Shown here piece after piece: positions 15,069 through 62,488 of a stretch of DNA of 64,000 bases. The notes below the pieces were generated by a model. That model was not told the origin of the DNA. It saw nothing but the letters and a program-made list of their open reading frames with translations, and ran no database searches. Position numbers and translations under genes: made by a program. The stretch comes from a bacterium (GTDB taxonomy: Bacteria; Lindowbacteria; 2-12-FULL-62-27): the NCBI GenBank assembly GCA_016202645.1, contig JACQOF010000127.1:71714-135713 (forward strand), read 5' to 3'. How positions within the stretch are numbered: position 1 is the first letter of the stretch; every line of letters starts with the position of its first letter.

Positions 15069-15344
15069 TTACTCCCTGCTTGGAGAAACCGGCTTCTCGG
15101 CCTCGAGGCGCTGGATTTGTTTCTGCAGGTCGCGGTGCCGGCGGAAACTGCCGAAGGCGGCGAAGACGTCGTAGAGGGCGAGCGCGGTGAGCGCGGCGAG
15201 ACCGAAGACGAACATGATGAAGACATCCTGCTTGACCTGGACGCCGGCGACGGCGATGAGGACGCCGGAGGCGAGGTGATGGCAGATGAGAAGACCCAGA
15301 AAAAGAAATATCCCGATAGCGATGAGGACCGTCAGGCGGCGCAT
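15069..15344 (-). CDS. LapA-family (DUF1049) small inner-membrane protein
   Basis: 91 aa with two TM helices, then the basic/coiled tail RRHRDLQKQIQRLEAE. Confidence 0.6.
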   Translation of the reverse strand: MRRLTVLIAIGIFLFLGLLICHHLASGVLIAVAGVQVKQDVFIMFVFGLAALTALALYDVFAAFGSFRRHRDLQKQIQRLEAEKPVSPSRE

Positions 15345-16654
15345 GAGGGGACCGCGGAAGGGATCGACGCGCGCAGACTTGTACCGGCCACGCGCTCGAC
15401 GCGGACCGGCACGACACGCCCGACTTCGGTTAACGGCAGGTCCGCGACGACGGTATGAAAGGCGCGGCTCTTGCCGAAGAGTCCGCCCTCCCGCGCGGGG
15501 CCTTCAAAAAGAACTTCCACCACACGGCCGACTTGCCGGGCCAGGGAGGCACGAGTGTGGGCGGACTGGACCTCCGCCAGACTCGCGTGACGATCGACGG
15601 CAACGTCATGCGGCGGCGACGGATCCTTCAAACGGGTGGCGGCGGTGCCGCTCCGGGGACTGTAAAGGTACATGTAGGCGGCGTCGAACCCGACCTCCTC
15701 GCAGAGCGAAAGAGTCTGCCGGAAATCCTCCTCGGTTTCGCCCGGGAAACCCACGATGACGTCGGTCGTGATCGCGATGTCCGGCATTGCGCGCCGCAGA
15801 GCGCCAACCTTCCGCAGGAATGACTCGCGCGTGTAGAACCGTTTCATCCGCCGAAGAATCCGGTCCGACCCGCTCTGGACCGGCAGATGAATATGCTCGC
15901 AGAGGCTCCCGAGGTCCGGCCACGCCGAGATCAGATCGTCGGTGAGTTTTCCGGGATGGGGAGATAGAAACCGCACGCGCCCGCCCGAAAAACGGCGGTC
16001 CGTTTCCCGGAGCAGTTCGGTGAACCACGAGTCTGCGGGCATGGGGCCCAGATCGTCGCCGTAGGCGTTGACCGTCTGGCCGAGAAACAGGATCTCGCGA
16101 TAGCCGGCCAAAACCAGCGAATCCACCTCGCGCAGGACGTCCGGCAGAGGGCGGGATTTTTCCCGGCCACGCGTCCTGGGCACGATGCAGTACGTGCAGT
16201 CCATGTTGCATCCGGTGATGATCGTGACGCAGGCCTTGAAGGATGAAAACCGAAGCCGCGGCGTCTCGGCGGTCAGGGCCTCCGACGGGCCGAAATCGGC
16301 CCTCTGCTCGGATAGAAACCTTGAAACTTGCGTCACTTGGTCCGTTGGAATGACGGCATCGAGAAACGGCAGAGTTTCAAACAGACGCGTGCGCTCCTCC
16401 GAAGCGACACAACCCATCGCGGCCACGAAAACTTCCGGACGGCGGCGCTTGAGGCCGGAAAGTTCCCGGAGACGCGCAAGTCCCCGGAGTTTCGCGTGTT
16501 CGCGGACGGTACAGGTGTTGACGAACACGGCGTCCGCCGAATCGGGCGCGTCGACCAGTTCGTACCCCAGGCGCGCCAGCTGACCCGCCACGATTTCGGA
16601 ATCGTGGAGGTTCATCTGACAGCCGAAGGTCAGAATGCAGGCGCGAGGCTTCAG
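15332..16654 (-). CDS. miaB: tRNA (N6-isopentenyl-A37) methylthiotransferase, radical SAM
   Basis: CNMDCTYC radical-SAM motif and a C-terminal TRAM domain. The first ATG (16615) is the Met of the conserved FGCQMN motif, so the first cluster-ligand Cys lies upstream. Start therefore placed at in-frame CTG 16654, which has a GGAGGA 9 nt upstream and overlaps the upstream stop as CTGA. Confidence 0.85.
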   Translation of the reverse strand: MKPRACILTFGCQMNLHDSEIVAGQLARLGYELVDAPDSADAVFVNTCTVREHAKLRGLARLRELSGLKRRRPEVFVAAMGCVASEERTRLFETLPFLDAVIPTDQVTQVSRFLSEQRADFGPSEALTAETPRLRFSSFKACVTIITGCNMDCTYCIVPRTRGREKSRPLPDVLREVDSLVLAGYREILFLGQTVNAYGDDLGPMPADSWFTELLRETDRRFSGGRVRFLSPHPGKLTDDLISAWPDLGSLCEHIHLPVQSGSDRILRRMKRFYTRESFLRKVGALRRAMPDIAITTDVIVGFPGETEEDFRQTLSLCEEVGFDAAYMYLYSPRSGTAATRLKDPSPPHDVAVDRHASLAEVQSAHTRASLARQVGRVVEVLFEGPAREGGLFGKSRAFHTVVADLPLTEVGRVVPVRVERVAGTSLRASIPSAVPSCAA

Positions 16655-17238
16655 GACCCGCTTTCCTCCGACGAGGTCCTTGGCTTCTTCTTCTCCTTCG
16701 CAGGCTTGGCCGGCCCGGCCGGAGAACCCGTGGCGGGGTTTCGGAACATGATGTAGCGGACTTGCGTGACGTCGATCTTCAGGTCGCCGTAGGTCGTCGC
16801 CACGCGGATGTCGCGCGCGGAAAATCCCTCGATCTTGCCGGTCACGTAGTCGGCGTTCCGGAGATATATCCGGTCGGCGGTCGAGGTCGTGTATTCCGAC
16901 GCAAGCGTCTCCTCGCCGATCATGTCCATGTCGACGTAGCGGATGAACGGCAGTTTCACGGAAATGTCCGACTCGAAATTGCTGATGAACCGGAATGATC
17001 CCTTGCTTCGGTAGCCGCCGCCCTCATACTTGATGGCCTTGAGGACGTCCCCGGTCGTGAGATGCACCGTGAACTTGAAACTCCGCGACGCCTCGTCCGC
17101 CTTGCGGTCGACTTTGCTCTTCTTCACTCCCCCCAAAATCTGATCGAAAATGTTCTCGGCCCGAACGGCCGCCGGAACCGCAAGGATGAGCGCTCCCAGA
17201 AGCGCCATCCTGCACATGCGATACACCATATGTCTCAC
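16651..17238 (-). CDS. secreted hypothetical protein
   Basis: Signal peptide MALLGALILAVPAAVRA, coding-like composition and a Lys/Pro-rich tail. No family recognised. Confidence 0.6.
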   Translation of the reverse strand: MRHMVYRMCRMALLGALILAVPAAVRAENIFDQILGGVKKSKVDRKADEASRSFKFTVHLTTGDVLKAIKYEGGGYRSKGSFRFISNFESDISVKLPFIRYVDMDMIGEETLASEYTTSTADRIYLRNADYVTGKIEGFSARDIRVATTYGDLKIDVTQVRYIMFRNPATGSPAGPAKPAKEKKKPRTSSEESGS

Positions 17239-18762: not shown

Positions 18763-19572
18763 ATGAAGACCCTGCGAACGACGGCGATTTTTCTGGCGTT
18801 TTTGTGCCCGGTCCCGGACGATGAGGCGCGAGCGGGATTTCGCATCACCTACGACGCCGTTTCATATTCGACCGTTACGGAAACCACCGTCGAAACCACG
18901 GATCGACGGCAAAACGTCCTGATGATCGACGAGGGACGGCTCCGGACCGTCGGCGGCGATGCCGAGGGGTTTGACTACATCGCGGACGCCCGAGGCGGCT
19001 GGCCCGAGACCGCGGCGGCGGAGATATACGGGGAGGGACTCGACGCGGCCGCCGACGGACGTCCCGTCGTCTACATCCTGGACCAGACCCGGCCGGCCTG
19101 CGCGGAAATTCCGTTTCTCATCGTTGACGGCACGGACACCGGATTCGACACGGCGGGTCTCTGGATCGAATCGGCCGGCGAGGACAAATCGATGATGGGA
19201 TACCGGACTGAACTCTACCGCATCTACGAGGGAGACGCGCTGATCCGGGAAATCTGGACGACGATGGATTTCGGGCTGGGCTTCGACTACATGCGGGTGC
19301 TCGAAAGTTTTGAACGCGAATTCAACAAGATGGCGCCGCAGGAGGATTTTGACGAGACAGCCCGGATATTCCGGCGCGTGAAAGGCGTTCCGCTGGTCGA
19401 CATCGAGTATTATCCGGGCGGCAGGGACGTGCTGGAGGCGAGGACGATCCAGAAAAAGAAATACAAGGACGACGATTTCCGGCCGCCGGAGAATTACACG
19501 CGGGTATCCCTCCGGGAACTCGCGGAAAACCCGCCCGGTCTCAACCACTCGGACGACGTGAACGACCGCTGA
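18763..19572 (+). CDS. secreted hypothetical protein
   Basis: ATG 18763 gives the signal peptide MKTLRTTAIFLAFLCPVP. The track ORF starts at GTG 18748. No family recognised. Confidence 0.6.
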   Translation: MKTLRTTAIFLAFLCPVPDDEARAGFRITYDAVSYSTVTETTVETTDRRQNVLMIDEGRLRTVGGDAEGFDYIADARGGWPETAAAEIYGEGLDAAADGRPVVYILDQTRPACAEIPFLIVDGTDTGFDTAGLWIESAGEDKSMMGYRTELYRIYEGDALIREIWTTMDFGLGFDYMRVLESFEREFNKMAPQEDFDETARIFRRVKGVPLVDIEYYPGGRDVLEARTIQKKKYKDDDFRPPENYTRVSLRELAENPPGLNHSDDVNDR

Positions 19573-20468
19573 GAACATCGTCCACTAACCCTTCCCCCCT
19601 TGAGGGGGAAGTTGGATGGGGGGGTTCAGCTGTCTTCAGATACCCTGAACTGACATCCACCAACGACCGCGCGCTGGACCTGGCGCGGAAGGGGGCGCCC
19701 GACCGGTCTATCGTCATCACCCGCCGGCAGACGGCCGGCCGCGGCCGCGGCGCGAACCGGTGGTGGTCGGACCGCCACGCGCTGACGTTCTCGATCATTC
19801 TTCGCCCCCCGCGCATCCATCCGGCGGCGGTGAGCGCGATTTCTTTGGTGACGGGACTGGCGGTCGCAAGAGCCCTCCGGCGGTTAAACCGAAAATGCGC
19901 CGTCGGCGTCAAATGGCCGAACGATCTGTACGCAGGCGGCCGAAAAGTCGGCGGGATTCTGGTGGAAAGCGAAGTCAGGACCGGTCGACCGGCGTTTTTT
20001 GTCGTCGGGATCGGGATCAATCTGAATTCAACCTTTCGCGGCGCGCCACCCGGCATCCGCAAGTCGGCGGTGTCGCTCAGGCAACTGACGGGCGCGCTGT
20101 GGGATTTCGACGAGACGCTGGCCGGAATTTTGCGGAATCTTTTTTCCCGTGTCGACGATTTTTTAAAAAATGGGTTCGATCCGTTTCACCGGGAATGGCG
20201 CCGGCTCGACGTCATCGCTGACGGCTCGCCCGTCAGGTGTCTCGTCGGAGGGCGGCGTATCGAAGGCCGGTACGCGGGCATTTCGCCGACCGGGGAACTG
20301 CGGATCCGGCCGCCGACGGGACCCGTCGAAACTTTTCTTTCCGGAACTCTTCTGATCGGTCAACGACCCCATGACTGTGCTTCCCGGAATATACCACGAT
20401 TTCGGAGAGGGTGGGATTTGAACCCACGGACCCGCGAGGGTCACACGATTTCGAGTCGTGCTCCTTAG
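19569..20468 (+). CDS. birA: biotin--[acetyl-CoA-carboxylase] ligase (group I, no HTH)
   Basis: ELTSTNDRA, GRGRGANRWWS and KWPNDLY motifs. The first two lie upstream of the first canonical start (ATG 19830). The frame is open back through CTG 19569, which overlaps the upstream stop as CTGA. The 3' end overlaps tRNA-Ser on the opposite strand. Confidence 0.8.
   Translation: MRTSSTNPSPLEGEVGWGGSAVFRYPELTSTNDRALDLARKGAPDRSIVITRRQTAGRGRGANRWWSDRHALTFSIILRPPRIHPAAVSAISLVTGLAVARALRRLNRKCAVGVKWPNDLYAGGRKVGGILVESEVRTGRPAFFVVGIGINLNSTFRGAPPGIRKSAVSLRQLTGALWDFDETLAGILRNLFSRVDDFLKNGFDPFHREWRRLDVIADGSPVRCLVGGRRIEGRYAGISPTGELRIRPPTGPVETFLSGTLLIGQRPHDCASRNIPRFRRGWDLNPRTREGHTISSRAP
19590..19630. repeat. 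G/C-tract palindromic element (CCTCCCCCTCAAGGGGGGAGG family), half unit
   Basis: ccttccccccttgagggggaagttggatgggggggttcagc, homologous to halves at 54361-54450 and 60823-60862. Confidence 0.8.
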
Positions 20469-20487
20469 TCCGCTCGGACACCTCTCC
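20403..20487 (-). tRNA. tRNA-Ser (anticodon CGA), class II with long variable arm
   Basis: Folded by hand: acceptor GGAGAGG/CCTCTCC, anticodon stem CACGA/TCGTG with loop CTCGAAA, variable arm TGACCCTCGCGGGTCC, T-arm GTGGG-TTCAAAT-CCCAC, discriminator G. No CCA is encoded. Confidence 0.9.
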
Positions 20488-20723
20488 AATTTATTTGTAT
20501 CTCGCCACAATATCAGTAAGTTAGAGATTCCGACGAAATAAATCCATTTAATTATTTCGCCACTTGGGTACAAATTGGGTACATTTCGGGAACATTTTCG
20601 TCCTGAATATACTGATCGAATTTACCCATCTGCTCGGCGTTCGTCTTATCAAGAGTGACGGCGTATCGCAAGGTAACGTTGCGCGCTTTTGATTTTCCTT
20701 CGCGTTTTCCCAATAGGACAACG

Positions 20724-36219: not shown

Positions 36220-36909
36220 ATGCTCAAAATCGGCGTCATTCTCAGCGGCTGCGGCGTCATGGACGGATCGGAAATCCACGAGTCGGTCCTGACGATCCTG
36301 GCCATTGACCGCGCCGGCGCGGAGGCGGTCTGTTTTGCGCCGGACAAAAACCAGAAACACGTGATCAACCATCTGACCCAGGCGGAATCCAGGGAAAGCC
36401 GGAATGTTCTGGCCGAATCGGCCCGGATCGCCCGCGGCAAAATTCAGGACCTGCGCAAGGCCACGGCAGACGGCCTCGACGCGGCGATCCTTCCCGGCGG
36501 ATACGGCGCCGCCAAGAACCTCTGTGATTTCGCGTTCAAAGGCCCCGACTGCGAGCTCGATCCGGACGTCCGGCAGATTCTGTCGGACCTGAACGCGGCC
36601 GGCAAGCCCATCGGAGCGATCTGTATTTCTCCGGCGGTCGTCGCGCGGGCGCTTGGATCCAAACATCCGAAACTCACCATCGGAACAGACCCCGGAACCG
36701 CCGGCGCGCTTGAAAAAATGGGCGCGAAGCACCAGGCCGCGCGGGTGGACGAGATTGTCGTGGATGAAGATCTCCGGATCGTCTCGACGCCCGCCTACAT
36801 GCTGGCGGGCCGCATCTCCGAGGCGGCCGCCGGCATCGAAAAGCTCGTGGCGGAAGTCGTGCGGCTGGCCAGGGTTGCCGGGCCGAAAAAAACGCCGGCC
36901 AGAGTGTAG
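36220..36909 (+). CDS. elbB: isoprenoid-biosynthesis glyoxalase ElbB (DJ-1/PfpI superfamily)
   Basis: MLKIGVILSGCGVMDGSEIHESV...LPGGYGAAKNLCDFA...GAICISP. RBS AAGGAGG upstream of ATG 36220. Confidence 0.8.
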   Translation: MLKIGVILSGCGVMDGSEIHESVLTILAIDRAGAEAVCFAPDKNQKHVINHLTQAESRESRNVLAESARIARGKIQDLRKATADGLDAAILPGGYGAAKNLCDFAFKGPDCELDPDVRQILSDLNAAGKPIGAICISPAVVARALGSKHPKLTIGTDPGTAGALEKMGAKHQAARVDEIVVDEDLRIVSTPAYMLAGRISEAAAGIEKLVAEVVRLARVAGPKKTPARV

Positions 36910-36922
36910 CGGCGCCGACGCC

Positions 36923-38077
36923 GTGCTCCACAAGCGCGCCGTTTTTCTCGATCGCGACGGGACCCTGCTGATTCCGCCGGAGGAGTATCTGGCGAAGGCC
37001 GACCAAGTCCGGTTTTATCCGGGCGTCCCGGAGGCGCTGGCGATCCTCAAGTCGAAAGGATTCCGGCGCGTGGTTGTCAGCAACCAGGCGGCCGTTGGCC
37101 GCGGCGTCATCAGTGAAATGAACGTGCTCCCGGTCCACAATCACATGAAGCGTCTCTTGTCGGAACGCGGCGCGGACCTCGACGCGATTTTATATTCGCC
37201 CTATTTCCCGGCCGCCGGCCATCCGGAACACCGCCGAAGACCCCAGGACCGCAAACCCGAACCGGGACTCTTCGAGGAAGCGGCGCGGATGTTTCGTCTG
37301 TCGCTCAAGGACAGTTTTGTCGTCGGCGACAGCCTTGTCGATCTTCAGTCCGCCCGCCGGATCGGCGCGCGCGGCGTGCTGGTCCTGACGGGCAAAGGCC
37401 CCGAGACACAGCGCGAGGCCGCCGCCGCCGGTGTTTCGCCCGATTTTGTCGCGGCGGACGTCCCGGCCGCGGCCGTTTGGATCTGCCGCCAAGTCCTCGA
37501 CCAGCCCCTCGCCGGAAAAAAAATCCTGTTCGTTCTGGCCGGCCGGGATTTTCAGGAAACCGAGTACCTCGTTCCCCGGCTGAATCTGGAGGCGTGGGGC
37601 GCGGAGGTCGATGTGGCCGGGCCCGGTCCTGGGCCGGACGAGTGCGTCGGAGGCGGCGGCCTGCGCGTGAAACCCGACGTCACCCACCAATCCGCCGACG
37701 CGGCGAAGTATGACGCGGTGGTTTTTGTGGGCGGCGGCGGCGCGCGATCCTTGAGCCGATGCGAATATTGTCGGGGCCTTGCGCGGAAGGCCTACGAATC
37801 GAAAAAAGTCGTCGCCGCCATCTGCGTGGCGCCGGCGATCCTCGCGGCCGAAAAACTTCTCTATCGCAAATCCGCCGTCGCATGGCATACTGAACTCTCG
37901 GAACTTCGCAAACAGGGCGCCCGGATTGTCCCGAGGGGCGTTGTGCGGGACGACTTGATCGTGACGGCCGCCGGCCCGCGAGATGCCGAACCCTTCGCAG
38001 ATGCCGTCCGGGCGGCGCTTCAAGGCGAACCGCAAATTGAAATGACGGTCGCGACCCGCGCCGTAAATCCCACGTGA
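36923..38077 (+). CDS. fusion protein: D,D-heptose 1,7-bisphosphate phosphatase (GmhB-type HAD-IIIA) + DJ-1/PfpI domain
   Basis: GTG 36923 start. HAD motifs FLDRDGTL, VVSNQ, RKPEPG and VGDSLVDL in the first ~185 aa. Then KKILFVLAGRDFQETEY...VVFVGGGG...VAAICVAPAIL, a DJ-1 nucleophile elbow. Confidence 0.7.
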   Translation: MLHKRAVFLDRDGTLLIPPEEYLAKADQVRFYPGVPEALAILKSKGFRRVVVSNQAAVGRGVISEMNVLPVHNHMKRLLSERGADLDAILYSPYFPAAGHPEHRRRPQDRKPEPGLFEEAARMFRLSLKDSFVVGDSLVDLQSARRIGARGVLVLTGKGPETQREAAAAGVSPDFVAADVPAAAVWICRQVLDQPLAGKKILFVLAGRDFQETEYLVPRLNLEAWGAEVDVAGPGPGPDECVGGGGLRVKPDVTHQSADAAKYDAVVFVGGGGARSLSRCEYCRGLARKAYESKKVVAAICVAPAILAAEKLLYRKSAVAWHTELSELRKQGARIVPRGVVRDDLIVTAAGPRDAEPFADAVRAALQGEPQIEMTVATRAVNPT

Positions 38078-39708: not shown

Positions 39709-41580
39709 TTACAGGACCCGGGTTCTGGAAGGGAGAAGGGAGGCGGCGGCGTGGCGGGAGGGGGGAGCCAGGTGCGCGGCCAGGCGGGTGGGGGCGTGCA
39801 GGGCGAAGAGTGCGGCGCGGCGCGCGAAGAAGTCGCGTTCGGAGGCGGCGCGGTGCTGGAGGAGAGGGCGGACCCGTGGGTCACGGATCTGGCCGAGGAT
39901 GATGTAGAGGTATTTGCGGACCGCCGGGATTTTTTCGGCGCGGGCGGCGGCGAAGACCGCCGAGGGATTCAGCGTATGATAGCGGTCGATCCGGAGGATC
40001 GCTTCGAGGGATGCCAGCCTGATGAGCAAAGGGAATCCGGGATGAGCGGCGCGCCAGAGCGCGGGGATGGCGCGGATGGCGCCGAGTTCTCCGAGGGCCC
40101 ACGCGGCGCGGACGCGGACGAGGAGCGCGCGCCGGGACATGAGGGCTTCGAGGAACCGGTTCACGGCGTTGGGATCGGAGAGCAAGGCATTGGCCGAGAC
40201 AGACGGTTCGAGCGCCCAGGGGTGGTCGAGGAATTTTTGAAAGAATCCGCTTACCGGGACACAGTCAAACATCGAGAGGCGGATGGCATAAAAGCGAAGC
40301 ATGAAGATCGCGTGTTTGCGGCGGCGGTCGTCGGCGCGGCTGGAGTAGGGAATGCGTTTGGCGGCGGCGCGAAATCCCGCCGTCAGTTTGGCGCGGAGCC
40401 GGCCCACCGCGCGCGCGAAATCCGGATTTTGCCTGAGGAGCGACGCGCCCCAGGATCGGGCCGCCCCGTACGGCGATTCGATGTTCAGCCTCGGAAATCT
40501 CAAATGAAAGAAACCGTCCCAAGCATCCCGCGGCGGGTGCCGGCCACGGAGGCTCAAAAACTGCTGGGCGAGCCAGTCCGTCGAGACAAACAGTCCCGCC
40601 GCGCGGAGGCCCTGCGTGTAAGCGCGAAGGGTCCTGGCGGGGTGCCGCGCGTAGAGACTGAGAAATTCCGGCGGCACGTGGTACAGCGTGCGCGCGATGC
40701 GGTCGAAATCCTCCGAAAGGCCCACCCATGAGGCGGGGCTGTCCGGCCCGTTCAGCGCCGACGCCGACCGGCCGACTTCGGCTTTGCCGTGATGAGTCGG
40801 AAGGCCATAGTGTTCCCAAAGCCGCGCCCGCAGGCGTCTGAAGACGCCGAGAAGTTCCCGGCGGTTCCCGCCGAAGAGGTACATATCATCGACGTACCGG
40901 AAGTATCTGCCCCGGAGATTCCATGCGTTCAGGAGTTCCTCATCGAGAGACGCGAGGTAAACATTGGCAAGGCACCCGGAGATCGTCGGGCCCGCCGCAA
41001 GGTTCGGCCCGTCGGCCCACAGGAGCGACCGGAGGGCCAAAAAGATCGGGTCGCGCGGAAGAATTCCGGCGAGCGCGTCGATGAGTTGTCCCCGGCGGAT
41101 GTGCGGGTAAAATTTCCGGACGTCGGTTTTCACGTAATGCCGGTACCGCCGGCCCGCATCCCGCGCGGCGCCTTCGAACTGCCCCCAGGACGACCGCCAG
41201 TCGAGGAAGAGCCGGTCGGAGGAGTGAACGCCGCCGAGCCGGTTCCCAAACGAGGCGCGGCCGCTTCGGTCCATGCGGCCTTCAAGGACCGGCCGGGCGG
41301 CGAGGGCCAGCGCGACCGCGGCGACTTCATCCCGAAAATTGCGGTAGGCGTAGGGCCGGTTTTCGCCGGATTTTTTCGGCACCGGAAACCGGATGAGCGG
41401 GCCCCAGCGGTACCCGCGTTTCAGGTGGAGCGACAGAAGCCGGAGGTTGTCGAAAAGTCCCCACTCAAACAGCCGGATTTCGAGCGTGTCGTAATACGGC
41501 GATTCCCACTGCCACTGCCGCGCTTTGAGAAAGGCGGCGTAGAGATTGGCGGTGTGGGCGGCCCGGTCTAAAAGGGTCAG
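39709..41580 (-). CDS. reverse transcriptase with C-terminal HEAT/alpha-repeat domain (UG/Abi class-1-like architecture)
   Basis: RT motifs: FPVPKKSGENRP (1), NFRDEVAAV (2), YVKTDVRKFYPHI (A), LAAGPTISGCLANVYLASLD (B), YFRYVDDMYLFG (C) and HHGKAEV (E). C-terminal HEAT-like repeats VRVRAAWALGELGAIRAIPAL and IRDPRVRPLLQH. The track ORF starts at GTG 41382, inside motif 1. I extended it 66 in-frame codons (LTLLDRAAHTANLYAAFLKAR...LKRGYRWGPLIRFP) to CTG 41580. Confidence 0.8.
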   Translation of the reverse strand: MTLLDRAAHTANLYAAFLKARQWQWESPYYDTLEIRLFEWGLFDNLRLLSLHLKRGYRWGPLIRFPVPKKSGENRPYAYRNFRDEVAAVALALAARPVLEGRMDRSGRASFGNRLGGVHSSDRLFLDWRSSWGQFEGAARDAGRRYRHYVKTDVRKFYPHIRRGQLIDALAGILPRDPIFLALRSLLWADGPNLAAGPTISGCLANVYLASLDEELLNAWNLRGRYFRYVDDMYLFGGNRRELLGVFRRLRARLWEHYGLPTHHGKAEVGRSASALNGPDSPASWVGLSEDFDRIARTLYHVPPEFLSLYARHPARTLRAYTQGLRAAGLFVSTDWLAQQFLSLRGRHPPRDAWDGFFHLRFPRLNIESPYGAARSWGASLLRQNPDFARAVGRLRAKLTAGFRAAAKRIPYSSRADDRRRKHAIFMLRFYAIRLSMFDCVPVSGFFQKFLDHPWALEPSVSANALLSDPNAVNRFLEALMSRRALLVRVRAAWALGELGAIRAIPALWRAAHPGFPLLIRLASLEAILRIDRYHTLNPSAVFAAARAEKIPAVRKYLYIILGQIRDPRVRPLLQHRAASERDFFARRAALFALHAPTRLAAHLAPPSRHAAASLLPSRTRVL

Positions 41581-41987
41581 GATTTTTTCTTGGACCGCGG
41601 GCGCACGTCCCGTGCGGCTTTGAGGATGGCGGCGGGGGCGAAAGACTCTTCGAAGTTAAACACGCGCTCGAAATCCGCCGGGGTGTCTTCTTCGGTCTTG
41701 GTCATGAGACCCGCGTCGACAAGCGCGAACACGATGCGGCCGACCGTCTCGGTGTTGTCGACACCCCAAGCCTCAAGGACCTCCTTGGCCATGAGGCCGT
41801 ACTCCCGCGCGGCGAGGTCGCGGACGGCCTCGCAGAGTTCCTTCCCGGTGATGTGCCGGCGCCGCCGGAGCCGCCGGAGGGTGAACTCGAGGGCCGACAG
41901 CACGAACCCCAAGGCGTGGGGCCGCACGGCGCCTTTCAGCGCGTCGTTGGATATTTTTTCCAGCTGTTCGTAGGTGGTGGCTTTCAT
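41577..41987 (-). CDS. conserved hypothetical protein (resembles the PVC-group Minf_1886-type family)
   Basis: 136 aa. HITGKELCEAVRDLAAREYGLMAKEVLEAWGVDNTETVGRIVFALVDAGLM...DFERVF. ATGA overlap with rnhB and CTGA overlap with the RT gene. Confidence 0.55.
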   Translation of the reverse strand: MKATTYEQLEKISNDALKGAVRPHALGFVLSALEFTLRRLRRRRHITGKELCEAVRDLAAREYGLMAKEVLEAWGVDNTETVGRIVFALVDAGLMTKTEEDTPADFERVFNFEESFAPAAILKAARDVRPRSKKKS

Positions 41988-42661
41988 TCCTCGGGCACTA
42001 TATCTCCGGTTCCGGGATGATTCAAGTTGGATTCGGGCGGATCAACTTCATTTTTCAAGTTGGCGACCGTCCGCCACTTGAGCCGAACACAGGCGGGGAG
42101 GCGGTGCAGGGCCAGCCGGCATTTCAGAAGTTCCGCGCGGAGCCACCGTTTGGTGGCGGGGTCGGACGGATAGCCGGACCCGACGTCCCCCATCGCCGGC
42201 CGGAGTTCGTCCATCTGCCGGTCGCGGATGACCTTGGCGACGATCGACGCCGCCGAAACGATCAGGTGGTTCTCGTCGGCCTTCCATTCCGCCAGCACGT
42301 CGACCCCGGGGAATTTTTTTTGAATCCGCGCGGAAAGTTTGGCCGGCGGCAGAAACGCGTCGACGATGATCCGCCCGGGATTTAGTCTGGCCGCGAGCGC
42401 CGTCAGCCGGTCGAATTCAAGTTCGTTGAGGTTCCGCCCGCCGTTGATGTCCGCGGGCGTGACGATTTCATACGCGATCTGAAACCGGCCGGCTAGCCTT
42501 TCGAAAATCCGTTCCCGCGCTTTTCGGGTCAGCGCCTTGGAGTCGCGCACGCCGAGTTCCCGGAAAGGCTCGACGGTGTCGTCCTCGGCCAGGACGGCCC
42601 CCATCACCATCGGCCCGAGAACGGGACCGCGGCCGGCCTCATCGACTCCCATGATCCGCAT
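41984..42661 (-). CDS. rnhB: ribonuclease HII
   Basis: GVDEAGRGPVLGPMV, RDSK, ADENHLIVSAASIVAKV and GSGYPSD. Confidence 0.9.
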   Translation of the reverse strand: MRIMGVDEAGRGPVLGPMVMGAVLAEDDTVEPFRELGVRDSKALTRKARERIFERLAGRFQIAYEIVTPADINGGRNLNELEFDRLTALAARLNPGRIIVDAFLPPAKLSARIQKKFPGVDVLAEWKADENHLIVSAASIVAKVIRDRQMDELRPAMGDVGSGYPSDPATKRWLRAELLKCRLALHRLPACVRLKWRTVANLKNEVDPPESNLNHPGTGDIVPEE

Positions 42662-57893: not shown

Positions 57894-58950
57894 AGGGGTC
57901 ATTCCCTTAGTTTGTTAGTTTTGGAGGAATGTGATATGAGGAGACCATATGCCACGCGGTCCGAGGATTAGTTATCCACATGCGGTTTTTCATGTGATCA
58001 ATCGGTTTGTCGATCGTCATCCTTTTTTCACGGACAACGAGGACTATCGGCAATTCCTGGACGTTTATTTTGAAAACGCCGCAACCTTTGGTATCTGGAC
58101 GTATGCCTACGATCTTCTCCCAAATCATTTCCATTTTGTTATGGAGACGCCCTCGGGGGAGATTTCCAGATTTCTCCAGCGGTTTCTGACAAGTGCCGTC
58201 CAGAAGCTGAATCAAAGGCACAAACGCGTCGGACACCTGCTGCAGGGACGAACCAAGACCCTCCTGGTCCAGACGGATCGCTACTTCCACACAGTGATGG
58301 GTTATGCGTTGCTGAACGGCGTCCGGGCCGGATTGGCCAAGGACGTTTTCTCGGACACGCACAACAGCGTGAAGGAAATGCTGAATCCGCTGCGCAGCCG
58401 CCTGGCGCGAGGGCCCCTATGGGAGTATTTGTTCGGGCGCAAATTCGACTTGCGCCGAGTCCACTCGGAGATCCGTATGTGCCGCCGCTGGCTGAGCGAA
58501 TTGAATGTCGAGGGAAACGCCAAAGAATTTCGTCAGGGGCATCGTGGGTCGTTTTTATCTACTGCAGTTTATAGAGAAAAAGTCCTGCGCATGATTGAGC
58601 GAAGGAGGGATGAGACTGGACACAAGCATCGCAGAGAGACCGATAGACACAGGAAATCGTGGACTTGGCCGGAAATCAAAATTGCCGCGGACCGCGCCGT
58701 CGAAAAGAGCGCTTGGAAAGGGATCTGGAAAAATCGCGAAACAGCTGTTCGCCATATCCGCTGGTACATATCCATCGTGGGAGCGGGATGGACCTACGAG
58801 GAGACCTGCGAGCTCGAAGGGGCACACGGCAGGTCACATTCTCGACGGGCCGTTGCCATTCATGCCATCCGCAATACACCCAGGAAGAAAAACATTGCCG
58901 ACAGGGCAATCAGCCTCTGTCTAAACTAACAAACTAAGGGAATGACCCCT
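57894..58950 (+). mobile_element. RAYT-type element: Y1/HUH transposase gene bounded by perfect 28-bp inverted repeats
   Basis: aggggtcattcccttagtttgttagttt at 57894-57921 is the exact reverse complement of 58923-58950 (aaactaacaaactaagggaatgacccct). Confidence 0.8.
57949..58929 (+). CDS. REP-associated tyrosine transposase (IS200-like HUH/Y1, COG1943) with C-terminal HTH-like extension
   Basis: AVFHVINRFVDRHPFF, HUH motif LPNHFHFVMET, GHLLQGR, and catalytic-Tyr helix RYFHTVMGYALLNGVRAGL. The extra ~170 aa end in WTYEETCELEGAHGRSHSRRAVAIHAIRN, resembling a DnaA-C/Trp-repressor-type HTH. Confidence 0.8.
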   Translation: MPRGPRISYPHAVFHVINRFVDRHPFFTDNEDYRQFLDVYFENAATFGIWTYAYDLLPNHFHFVMETPSGEISRFLQRFLTSAVQKLNQRHKRVGHLLQGRTKTLLVQTDRYFHTVMGYALLNGVRAGLAKDVFSDTHNSVKEMLNPLRSRLARGPLWEYLFGRKFDLRRVHSEIRMCRRWLSELNVEGNAKEFRQGHRGSFLSTAVYREKVLRMIERRRDETGHKHRRETDRHRKSWTWPEIKIAADRAVEKSAWKGIWKNRETAVRHIRWYISIVGAGWTYEETCELEGAHGRSHSRRAVAIHAIRNTPRKKNIADRAISLCLN

Positions 58951-61588: not shown

Positions 61589-62488
61589 TCAGGGCGCGGC
61601 GGGTTTCTTGTTGTTGATCTTGCTCAGGAATCGCTCGGCCTCGGCCCGAAACCGGCCGTTCGGATATCGGATCATGTACTGGCTGATCTCGTCCCCGGCG
61701 GGGCCGTGGCTGTTTTGCGCCATCAGCACCGAAATGCGCCCGAACATGGCCAGTTCGGAAAACTCGCTTGCCGGAAAATCTTGTATGACGCTCTTGTACT
61801 GATCGAGCGCCGCCACAGTGTCGGACAAGGCCAGGGAACAGACCGCCATCCGGTAGAACGCGGCGGGCCGATTTTCGCCGGCCGGAAAGGTCTTGATCAA
61901 TTTTTCGTAGGCATCCCGCGCCTGCTCGTATTTCTTGTCTTCCTGATAGATTTCCCCCATGTCAAAGTGTGCCTTTTCCGACACGCGGTCCTTGCCAAAC
62001 TTCAAAATGATCCCGCGGTACCGTACCAGAGCCTCGATCTTGTTCCCGAGTTCCGAGAGGCTCTCGGCAATCTCGTAGGAGGCATTCTTGACGAACTCGC
62101 TCTTGGGATACCGCTTCACGAGGTCCTCGTAAGCCGCGACGGCCTTGCCGGCGTCCTTGAGATTGTATTTGTAGATGTTCGCGATTTCGTAAAGGCTGTC
62201 CGCCGCGTACTTGGCGTTGGGATTCCGCCGGACGATCTCCCGGAACCACTCGATGGCCCGTTCGTACTTGCCAAGCGATACCTGGTTGGAAGCCACGTTG
62301 AATCTCAGTTCAAGGTCAACTTCCTCCAAGTGGGCCGTCAGGGTTTCCATCTGTTTTTCCAGTTCCCTCAGCCGTTCCGCGCTCGATGCGTCGCCCTTCG
62401 CGCGCCACTTGCGGACCGCCTGGCAACCGGGCAGGAGCATCATCAAAATCAACGCGAGCGCGAGAGCGCGGATGGCGCGGGGTTTCAT
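61589..62488 (-). CDS. TPR-repeat lipoprotein (YbgF/CpoB- or BamD-like)
   Basis: Lipobox LLPGC, an N-terminal coiled coil (LRELEKQMETLTAHLEEVD), then TPRs with a YP.S..A pattern. Confidence 0.65.
   Translation of the reverse strand: MKPRAIRALALALILMMLLPGCQAVRKWRAKGDASSAERLRELEKQMETLTAHLEEVDLELRFNVASNQVSLGKYERAIEWFREIVRRNPNAKYAADSLYEIANIYKYNLKDAGKAVAAYEDLVKRYPKSEFVKNASYEIAESLSELGNKIEALVRYRGIILKFGKDRVSEKAHFDMGEIYQEDKKYEQARDAYEKLIKTFPAGENRPAAFYRMAVCSLALSDTVAALDQYKSVIQDFPASEFSELAMFGRISVLMAQNSHGPAGDEISQYMIRYPNGRFRAEAERFLSKINNKKPAAP

Follow-up and report, generated by a model that had tools for sequence, protein, structure and literature searches.

A reverse transcriptase gene of Candidatus Lindowbacteria probably begins at a CTG codon overlapping the stop codon of its upstream neighbour

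Where does a gene begin when its reading frame holds no canonical start codon ahead of its conserved N-terminal sequence? The question is posed by a reverse transcriptase (RT) gene of an uncultured groundwater bacterium, Candidatus Lindowbacteria, in a stretch of 64,000 nt (contig JACQOF010000127.1, assembly GCA_016202645.1), referred to here as the window, whose positions serve as coordinates throughout. Open reading frame (ORF) and gene callers place the start of this minus-strand gene at GTG 41380-41382, and the corresponding public entry (P0001) is a protein of 557 residues. The codon encodes the valine of RT motif 1 (RFPVPKKSG), as had been proposed and as translation of the sequence confirmed, and is not the real start. 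Re-delimited from CTG 41580, the gene occupies positions 39709-41580 of the minus strand (623 codons) and encodes an RT domain with a YVDD motif, followed by a C-terminal HEAT/alphaRep domain. Comparison of the junction across related lineages indicates that translation probably initiates at CUG 41580-41578, coupled to termination of the upstream ORF.

The upstream gene, of the Minf_1886 family, ends in its own frame with AAG AAA AAA TCC TGA, and the RT frame reads GAA AAA ATC CTG ACC CTT TTA GAC over the same region of the minus strand. The TGA stop codon (41577-41579) and the proposed CTG initiation codon (41578-41580) have TG in common, which places the two genes in a -4 overlap. The RT frame is opened by TAA 41656-41658, 25 codons 5' of the CTG, and contains no in-frame ATG, GTG or TTG from there to GTG 41382, the first canonical start, which lies 91 codons past the TAA and 66 codons past the CTG. 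The original prediction had described a frame open for 66 codons 5' of GTG 41382, without ATG, GTG or TTG, and a CTG 41580-41578 sharing TG with TGA 41579-41577; all of this was verified on the sequence, and the 66-residue string that it gave is exact. Directly 5' of the CTG, at 41581-41588, an A6 run (41588-41583) leads into ATC (41583-41581), an alternative near-cognate start one codon upstream. The A-run is the sole slippery-looking sequence at this place and is not kept in orthologues.

A homology search found 14 RT relatives, and the DNA of 12 further lineages was read, making 13 lineages with the window. In the protein alignment, the initial methionines of P0002 (MTLLDRAA...), P0003, P0005, P0009, P0012 and P0013 fall on the window CTG (LTLLDRAA...); P0002, P0003 and P0005, with 621-624 residues, start at this position. 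The correspondence extends to the nucleotide level, where ATG-ACC-CTT-CTA-GAC (MTLLD) of lineage L001 matches CTG-ACC-CTT-TTA-GAC of the window codon for codon, and the start region of L009, from a distant clade, reads ATG-ACT-CTC-CTT-GAA and aligns on the same CTG. The RT gene therefore has the two properties expected of a near-cognate start under translation table 11: a conserved N-terminal sequence with no canonical in-frame start upstream of it, and a CTG at the place where orthologues have their canonical start (ATG in L001 and L009). No orthologue was found to start at the position of GTG 41382, the outcome that had been named as contrary to a CTG start.

The 13 lineages fall into distinct junction states. 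A CTGA overlap without any canonical start is present in five: the window (ATC CTG ACC), L005 (ATC GCC CTG ACC), L007 (ATC CTG AAT), L008, identical with L043 (ATC CTG ACC), and L124 (CAG CCC CTG ACC). In a sixth, L003 (identical with L006 and L042; Lindowbacteria RIFCSPLOWO2_12_FULL_62_27), the overlap is ATAA, the upstream stop being TAA and the RT frame reading ATC ATA AAC, again with no canonical start. In each of these six, a canonical start is missing for 47-102 codons. L009 has an ATGA overlap (CCC ATG ACT). The remaining six have no overlap and use ATG or GTG: L001 has a 44-nt spacer and ATG, L122 an 18-nt spacer and GTG, L123 a spacer of 60+ nt and GTG, and L010, L128 and L129 lack a co-directional upstream neighbour and start with ATG. 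The 4-nt overlap is thus retained, five times as CTGA and once as ATAA, in every one of the six lineages that lack a canonical start. For the resulting split (6/0 vs 1/6) a Fisher exact test gives a one-sided p of ~0.004, a value that serves only as a guide, the lineages being related.

In a rough neighbour-joining (NJ) tree, L001 and L122, which combine a spacer with ATG or GTG, nest among the CTGA lineages, and L123 is basal. At positions 1754-1803, L001 preserves a relic of the overlap junction (TGATCCTGC), reading ATCCTGC where the upstream gene stops, and after the relic comes a 42-nt insert with in-frame stops that ends in the new ATG; this looks like the conversion of a CTGA junction to a spacer with a canonical start. 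Because of the placement of L001 and L122 and the relic in L001, the RT junction is read here as having switched state several times. Two public calls, P0014 (L128) and P0015 (L129), at first resembled further non-canonical RT cases, and P0021 (L125) a non-canonical MiaB case; all three were rejected, a canonical ATG or TTG being present upstream of the later ATG taken by the caller. These three entries are N-terminally short through gene-caller choice.

The codons between the CTG and GTG 41382 behave as coding sequence. Over 52 of them (LYAAFLKAR onward), dN/dS among the six start-less lineages is 0.06-0.24 at a dS of 0.7-2.1, with no stop or frameshift in any of the six, so that the N-terminal codons of the RT are, as judged by substitution pattern, under purifying selection. 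The sequence TLLDRAA, which directly follows the start, is kept even in comparison with a clade of ~40% identity. Because of this conservation, translation in the window must, on the alignment, begin at or just 5' of Thr-2, where CTG 41580 and ATC 41583 are the only near-cognate codons. Together, the ATG of orthologues at the CTG, the lack of a canonical start and the selection on the N-terminal codons support the start at the overlapped CTG that had been proposed.

Family profiles and structure prediction place the same residues within the enzyme. The RT protein matches Pfam RVT_1 and HEAT_2 and, in a PDB profile search, alphaRep chains. Its best PADLOC models are the Class 1 UG/Abi groups UG35, UG21, UG25 and UG19; position 3 of RT_UG19 aligns to residue 4 and position 5 of RT_UG21 to residue 11 of the extended protein, and position 3 of the group II RT profile to residue 13. 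An AlphaFold2 model built on 15 homologues has a mean predicted local distance difference test (pLDDT) score of 85 and a predicted template modelling (pTM) score of 0.87, with the first 60 residues modelled as four helices packed in the RT (block-mean pLDDT 72-93). In this model, the 66 codons 5' of GTG 41382 encode an integral, folded part of the enzyme. The original prediction had likened them to the usual RT N-terminus, with which both the fold and the beginning of the RT family profiles near the CTG agree. According to Foldseek, the RT domain resembles RTs of diversity-generating retroelements (DGR), group II introns and G2L4, and the whole chain AbiK, AbiA, DRT6 and UG15.

With its YxDD RT domain and C-terminal alphaRep/HEAT-like repeat domain, the protein has the architecture of Class 1 UG/Abi RTs. 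It has no N-terminal methyltransferase of the UG35/UG25 kind and begins at the RT domain; the UG35 match spans only positions 325-770 of the 938 in the profile. Assignment as a group II intron RT/maturase was rejected, as the match to NCBIfam TIGR04416 (49 bits) lies below the family cut-off of 300 and a scan with Rfam found no intron RNA family anywhere in the window. The scan likewise found no Rfam RNA near the RT, and neither it nor a promoter/terminator scan gave anything bearing on the RT junction.

How such a frame might be translated is suggested by its context. CUG 41580-41578 would be read by the initiator tRNA as methionine, yielding a 623-residue protein beginning MTLLDRAAH. A ribosome or 30S subunit that had just released the upstream protein would already sit on the CUG and would restart there, although CUG is poor for de novo initiation, so that RT synthesis would depend on upstream termination; as a likely consequence, little RT would be made, in an amount linked to expression of the upstream gene. 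No Shine-Dalgarno (SD)-like motif was seen in the junction sequences 5' of the RT start in any orthologue, in a window with clear GGAGG motifs elsewhere (those of purC, rnhB, miaB and the gene that follows bioB). Each lineage with a non-canonical start has the -4 overlap (6/6), and where a spacer or the lack of a co-directional upstream gene removes it, ATG or GTG is used (6/6). Dependence of RT translation on upstream termination is supported indirectly by this comparison of junctions. Of the near-cognate codons measured in E. coli, CUG and AUA belong to the four that initiate best, with 1-2% of the AUG level (preprint 10.1101/063800).

Instead of initiating anew, the ribosome might pass from one gene into the other by a -1 frameshift or a bypass of the stop codon at the end of the Minf_1886-family gene, producing a Minf_1886-RT fusion that needs no start codon. 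In each of the six start-less lineages the RT is indeed in the -1 frame with respect to the upstream gene, the A-rich sequence of the window (AAG AAA AAA TCC TGA) lies directly before the stop, an AUGA overlap of M. tuberculosis gave reinitiation plus a frameshifted fusion (PMC11260477), and additional N-terminal domains, in some cases encoded separately, are frequent in Class 1 UG/Abi RTs (PMC9226505). Yet no slippery site of the form X XXY YYZ is conserved: the sequence before the stop differs in each lineage (AAA TCG CCC TGA in L005, AAA CCA TCC TGA in L007, CGG CCA TCA TAA in L003, CGC AGC CCC TGA in L124) and the A-run is found in the window only. In L007, moreover, an in-frame TAG merely 7 codons 5' of the CTG leaves almost no room for a shift. 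In L001, L122 and L123 the RT is a separate protein, the spacers containing in-frame stops and the gene its own ATG or GTG; outside the Lindowbacteria clade the upstream partner is different or absent, with no co-directional upstream gene in L128 and L129, and the models of the RT family start where the CTG lies. We regard a fusion as improbable. Translation might also avoid the junction if the 66 N-terminal codons were untranslated, the RT beginning at GTG 41382, as the gene callers have it (P0001), or the gene being a decaying pseudogene. This is very unlikely, as GTG 41382 sits inside RT motif 1 and the preceding stretch has a low dN/dS at saturated dS, is free of stops and frameshifts in six lineages, is confidently modelled in the RT fold and aligns to RT family profiles. 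The homopolymer adjoining the junction, finally, raises the thought that an error of sequencing or assembly may be masking a canonical start or a genuine fusion. The junction bases are covered, with no indel, in Logan contigs from four separate groundwater-metagenome runs (depth 18x for X1, 13x for X2), and because these four independent assemblies agree, the A6 run and the CTGA are not assembly errors; a concealed indel, which had been named beforehand as speaking against the CTG, is found in none of them. As five other lineages from different samples also have the same frame relationship without the homopolymer, an error is hardly credible.

Several points weigh against a coupled restart at the CUG, part of them in favour of ordinary de novo initiation at the near-cognate CUG 41580 or AUC 41583, in which the overlap would be incidental gene packing. 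AUC and CUG each reach 1-2% of AUG in E. coli (preprint 10.1101/063800). At miaB, the second CTGA gene of the window, the CTG is preceded by a strong SD motif (GGAGGA, 9 nt upstream), which suggests that CUG is usable with an SD in this organism and may also work de novo, uncoupled. ATC 41583-41581 is likewise near-cognate, and ATC stands directly 5' of the CTG or ATA in four of the six start-less lineages (window, L007, L008, L003). De novo initiation is nevertheless unlikely: no lineage has an SD-like motif at the RT start, and a perfect association between non-canonical codon and overlap would be unexpected were the overlap irrelevant. As a conserved start, ATC was rejected, since it is not beside the CTG in L124 and is displaced to two codons away in L005; in the window itself its use is possible. 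Because L124 has no ATC beside its CTG, it is CTG, and not ATC, that the aligned junctions of the CTGA lineages have in common. Other points weigh on the coupled restart itself. An NTGA overlap always yields NTG, so that a CTG is in itself not improbable and the argument rests on the retention of the overlap, and the kinship among lineages lets the association test overstate their independence. In E. coli, reinitiation without an SD and the use of non-canonical starts are both discriminated against by initiation factor 3 (IF3; PMC2268962). A search over all run types, which included no RNA-only search, gave DNA metagenomes only, and the organism is uncultured. Lastly, there is no sign in a small sample, the window and ~60 kb of related loci, that overlapped near-cognate starts are a frequent genome-wide habit. 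Termination-coupled initiation at CUG 41580-41578 remains the probable reading with these points taken into account.

The original prediction had counted miaB and birA as further cases of the CTGA arrangement. All three junctions exist; miaB stands as a case and the start of birA is ambiguous. In miaB (15332-16654, minus strand), CTG 16654-16652 overlaps the TGA 16653-16651 of a conserved upstream gene and GGAGGA lies at 16669-16664. In frame, a canonical start is first reached at the M of TFGCQMN, and between the GGAGGA and the CQMN codons there is no ATG, GTG or TTG in any frame. Position 2 of Pfam UPF0004 aligns four residues past the CTG, and miaB orthologues begin with MPRAC or MSRAC (ATG in L126; TTG with AGGAGA in L127). 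The codon of the window homologous to the orthologue start is AAG, and the CTG lies one codon upstream of it. Other assemblies agree at this junction. An overlapped CTG start of miaB is, from the sequence, a sound conclusion, but one that is specific to this genome and comes with an SD. The gene 5' of miaB (16651-16700, minus strand) lacks the ...EK* stop of its orthologues, is ~11 codons longer and ends in the TGA that overlaps the miaB CTG; the formerly intergenic SD region 5' of miaB is now coding.

The third junction lies at birA (19569-20468, plus strand), with CTG 19569-19571 and TGA 19570-19572. In frame, the earliest canonical start is GTG 19830, past the GRGRGANRW motif; a motif search for GRGRxGR, which the BirA of the window does not match with its GRGRGANRW, found nothing in the window. 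Between the upstream DUF4412 gene and birA, in place of the N-terminal segment of orthologous BirA, sits a palindromic high-copy repeat (19584-19627) that folds into the hairpin CUUCCCCCC-UUGA-GGGGGGAAG (-38.6 kcal/mol, z -2.9). It occurs once in the window and reaches up to 1564x depth in the source metagenomes, against 15x in its flanks. Within the repeat, a GAGGGGGAAG motif precedes an ATG (19616-19618) that is out of frame and leads into a G7 run (19618-19624); one G less in this run would give MGGSAVFRYPELTSTND, and two other run assemblies keep G7. A CTG start, an ATG with a frameshift, and a damaged gene are all possible for birA. Identification of the birA junction with a CTGA at 61592 was rejected, as that one belongs to purC, which has a normal GGAGG and ATG 61577, and the real birA is at 19569. 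At its 3' end, the birA frame has no stop until a tRNA-Ser(CGA) gene (20402-20488, minus strand), and the resulting read-through tail of ~35 residues (…GWDLNPRTREGH…) is missing in orthologues. Elsewhere in the window, a gene at 57949-58929 (plus strand) matches the REP-associated tyrosine transposase family NF047646 (5.7e-12, below the family cut-off) and may be related to the repeat.

By our classification of junctions, about six -4 overlaps in the window are genuine and canonical, and two or three genes have a CTGA start; the overlapped non-canonical starts amount to 2-3 of its ~55 genes. Two other CTGA sites, one at purC (61592) and one at a gene for an outer-membrane protein (57440), are coincidental, a normal ATG following in both cases; the gene after bioB has a normal SD and ATG. 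A long 5' extension of a GmhB gene was set aside as a non-canonical case, a normal GTG being present. This gene (36653-38077, plus strand) encodes a fusion of a GmhB-like phosphatase with a DJ-1/PfpI domain; taken as its longest ORF it reaches ~250 nt into the ElbB-like gene before it, and its true start is probably GTG 36923. A composition-based census of the window yielded no further convincing case, and in ~60 kb of related loci no further overlap-dependent non-canonical start was seen beyond the RT orthologues.

The RT is the last gene of an overlapping chain on the minus strand. The chain is headed by rnhB (RNase HII, 41984-42661), which has GGAGG 5' of its ATG; the rnhB stop overlaps, as ATGA, the ATG of the Minf_1886-family gene (41577-41987, 136 aa), which leads through CTGA into the RT. 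The 136-aa protein was assigned to TIGR04138 (Minf_1886 family) by a profile search (3.6e-32). At 39709-42661 (minus strand) the RT thus adjoins RNase HII in a conserved housekeeping neighbourhood, zapA-rnhB-Minf_1886-RT, not in a defence island, and this neighbourhood is kept in several Lindowbacteria (L001, L005, L122).

For annotation, the consequences are immediate. Gene callers cut 47-102 codons off the RT in six of nine Lindowbacteria lineages, with loss of the conserved helices before RT motif 1, and begin the miaB of this genome inside its Fe-S cluster motif; to express or classify these proteins from public annotations is to work with broken versions. Start-codon choice by reinitiating ribosomes is still debated, both as to whether 30S or 70S particles are involved and as to the role of IF3. 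From the natural comparison between junctions that kept and lost the overlap, CUG and AUA would be expected to be tolerated in termination-coupled restart; the arrangement also suggests that this Class 1 UG/Abi-like RT, chromosomal and conserved, is produced at a low level that follows that of its upstream partner. A wider proposition, which we put forward only tentatively, is that in Lindowbacteria, termination at a 4-nt overlap is followed by efficient restart of the same ribosomes on CUG or AUA without an SD, and that CTGA and ATAA act as stable, selectable stop-restart signals in several genes (RT, miaB, possibly birA), fixing a low ratio of downstream to upstream protein. If true, this would be natural evolutionary evidence of relaxed start-codon proofreading during reinitiation, and might point to lineage-specific features of IF3 or the initiator tRNA.

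Near-cognate starts of bacteria under translation table 11 comprise CTG, ATT, ATC and ATA, the AUU of infC being an example. The RT start resembles these in being one base off AUG, with CUG and AUA among the four best in E. coli, and differs in being kept across diverged lineages only where it overlaps a stop, ATG or GTG taking its place where the overlap is lost. Coupling of termination and reinitiation at -4 NTGA overlaps is an established phenomenon (Huber et al. 2019, PMC6728339; PMC12548453; PMC10666635). The RT junction shares with it the co-directional genes, the start that has two bases in common with an upstream TGA or TAA, the dispensable SD and, in the window, the chain of such overlaps, with NTGA bases shared in the window, L005, L007, L008 and L124 and ATAA in L003. 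The described cases have ATG, GTG or TTG, unlike the CTG, or the ATA/TAA pair of L003, seen here; a text search found no CTGA in PMC6728339, and one for CTG/CUG and related start-codon terms found none in PMC12548453 and PMC10666635. In uORF-ppe2 of M. tuberculosis, an upstream ORF, downstream expression likewise passes through a 4-nt stop/start overlap (AUGA; PMC11260477), there with a canonical AUG and experimental proof, whereas the RT start is non-canonical and proposed from sequence comparison. As to the protein, Class 1 UG/Abi RTs (Mestre et al. 2022, PMC9226505) also have a YVDD RT domain followed by HEAT-like repeats; unlike them, the RT described here lacks the N-terminal methylase of UG35/UG25, lies in a housekeeping neighbourhood and has no associated non-coding RNA that we could find. 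Near-cognate starts and NTGA coupling are thus each known, and what is new, as read from the sequences, is that the two are combined, in a form that depends on the overlap and has been conserved through long divergence.

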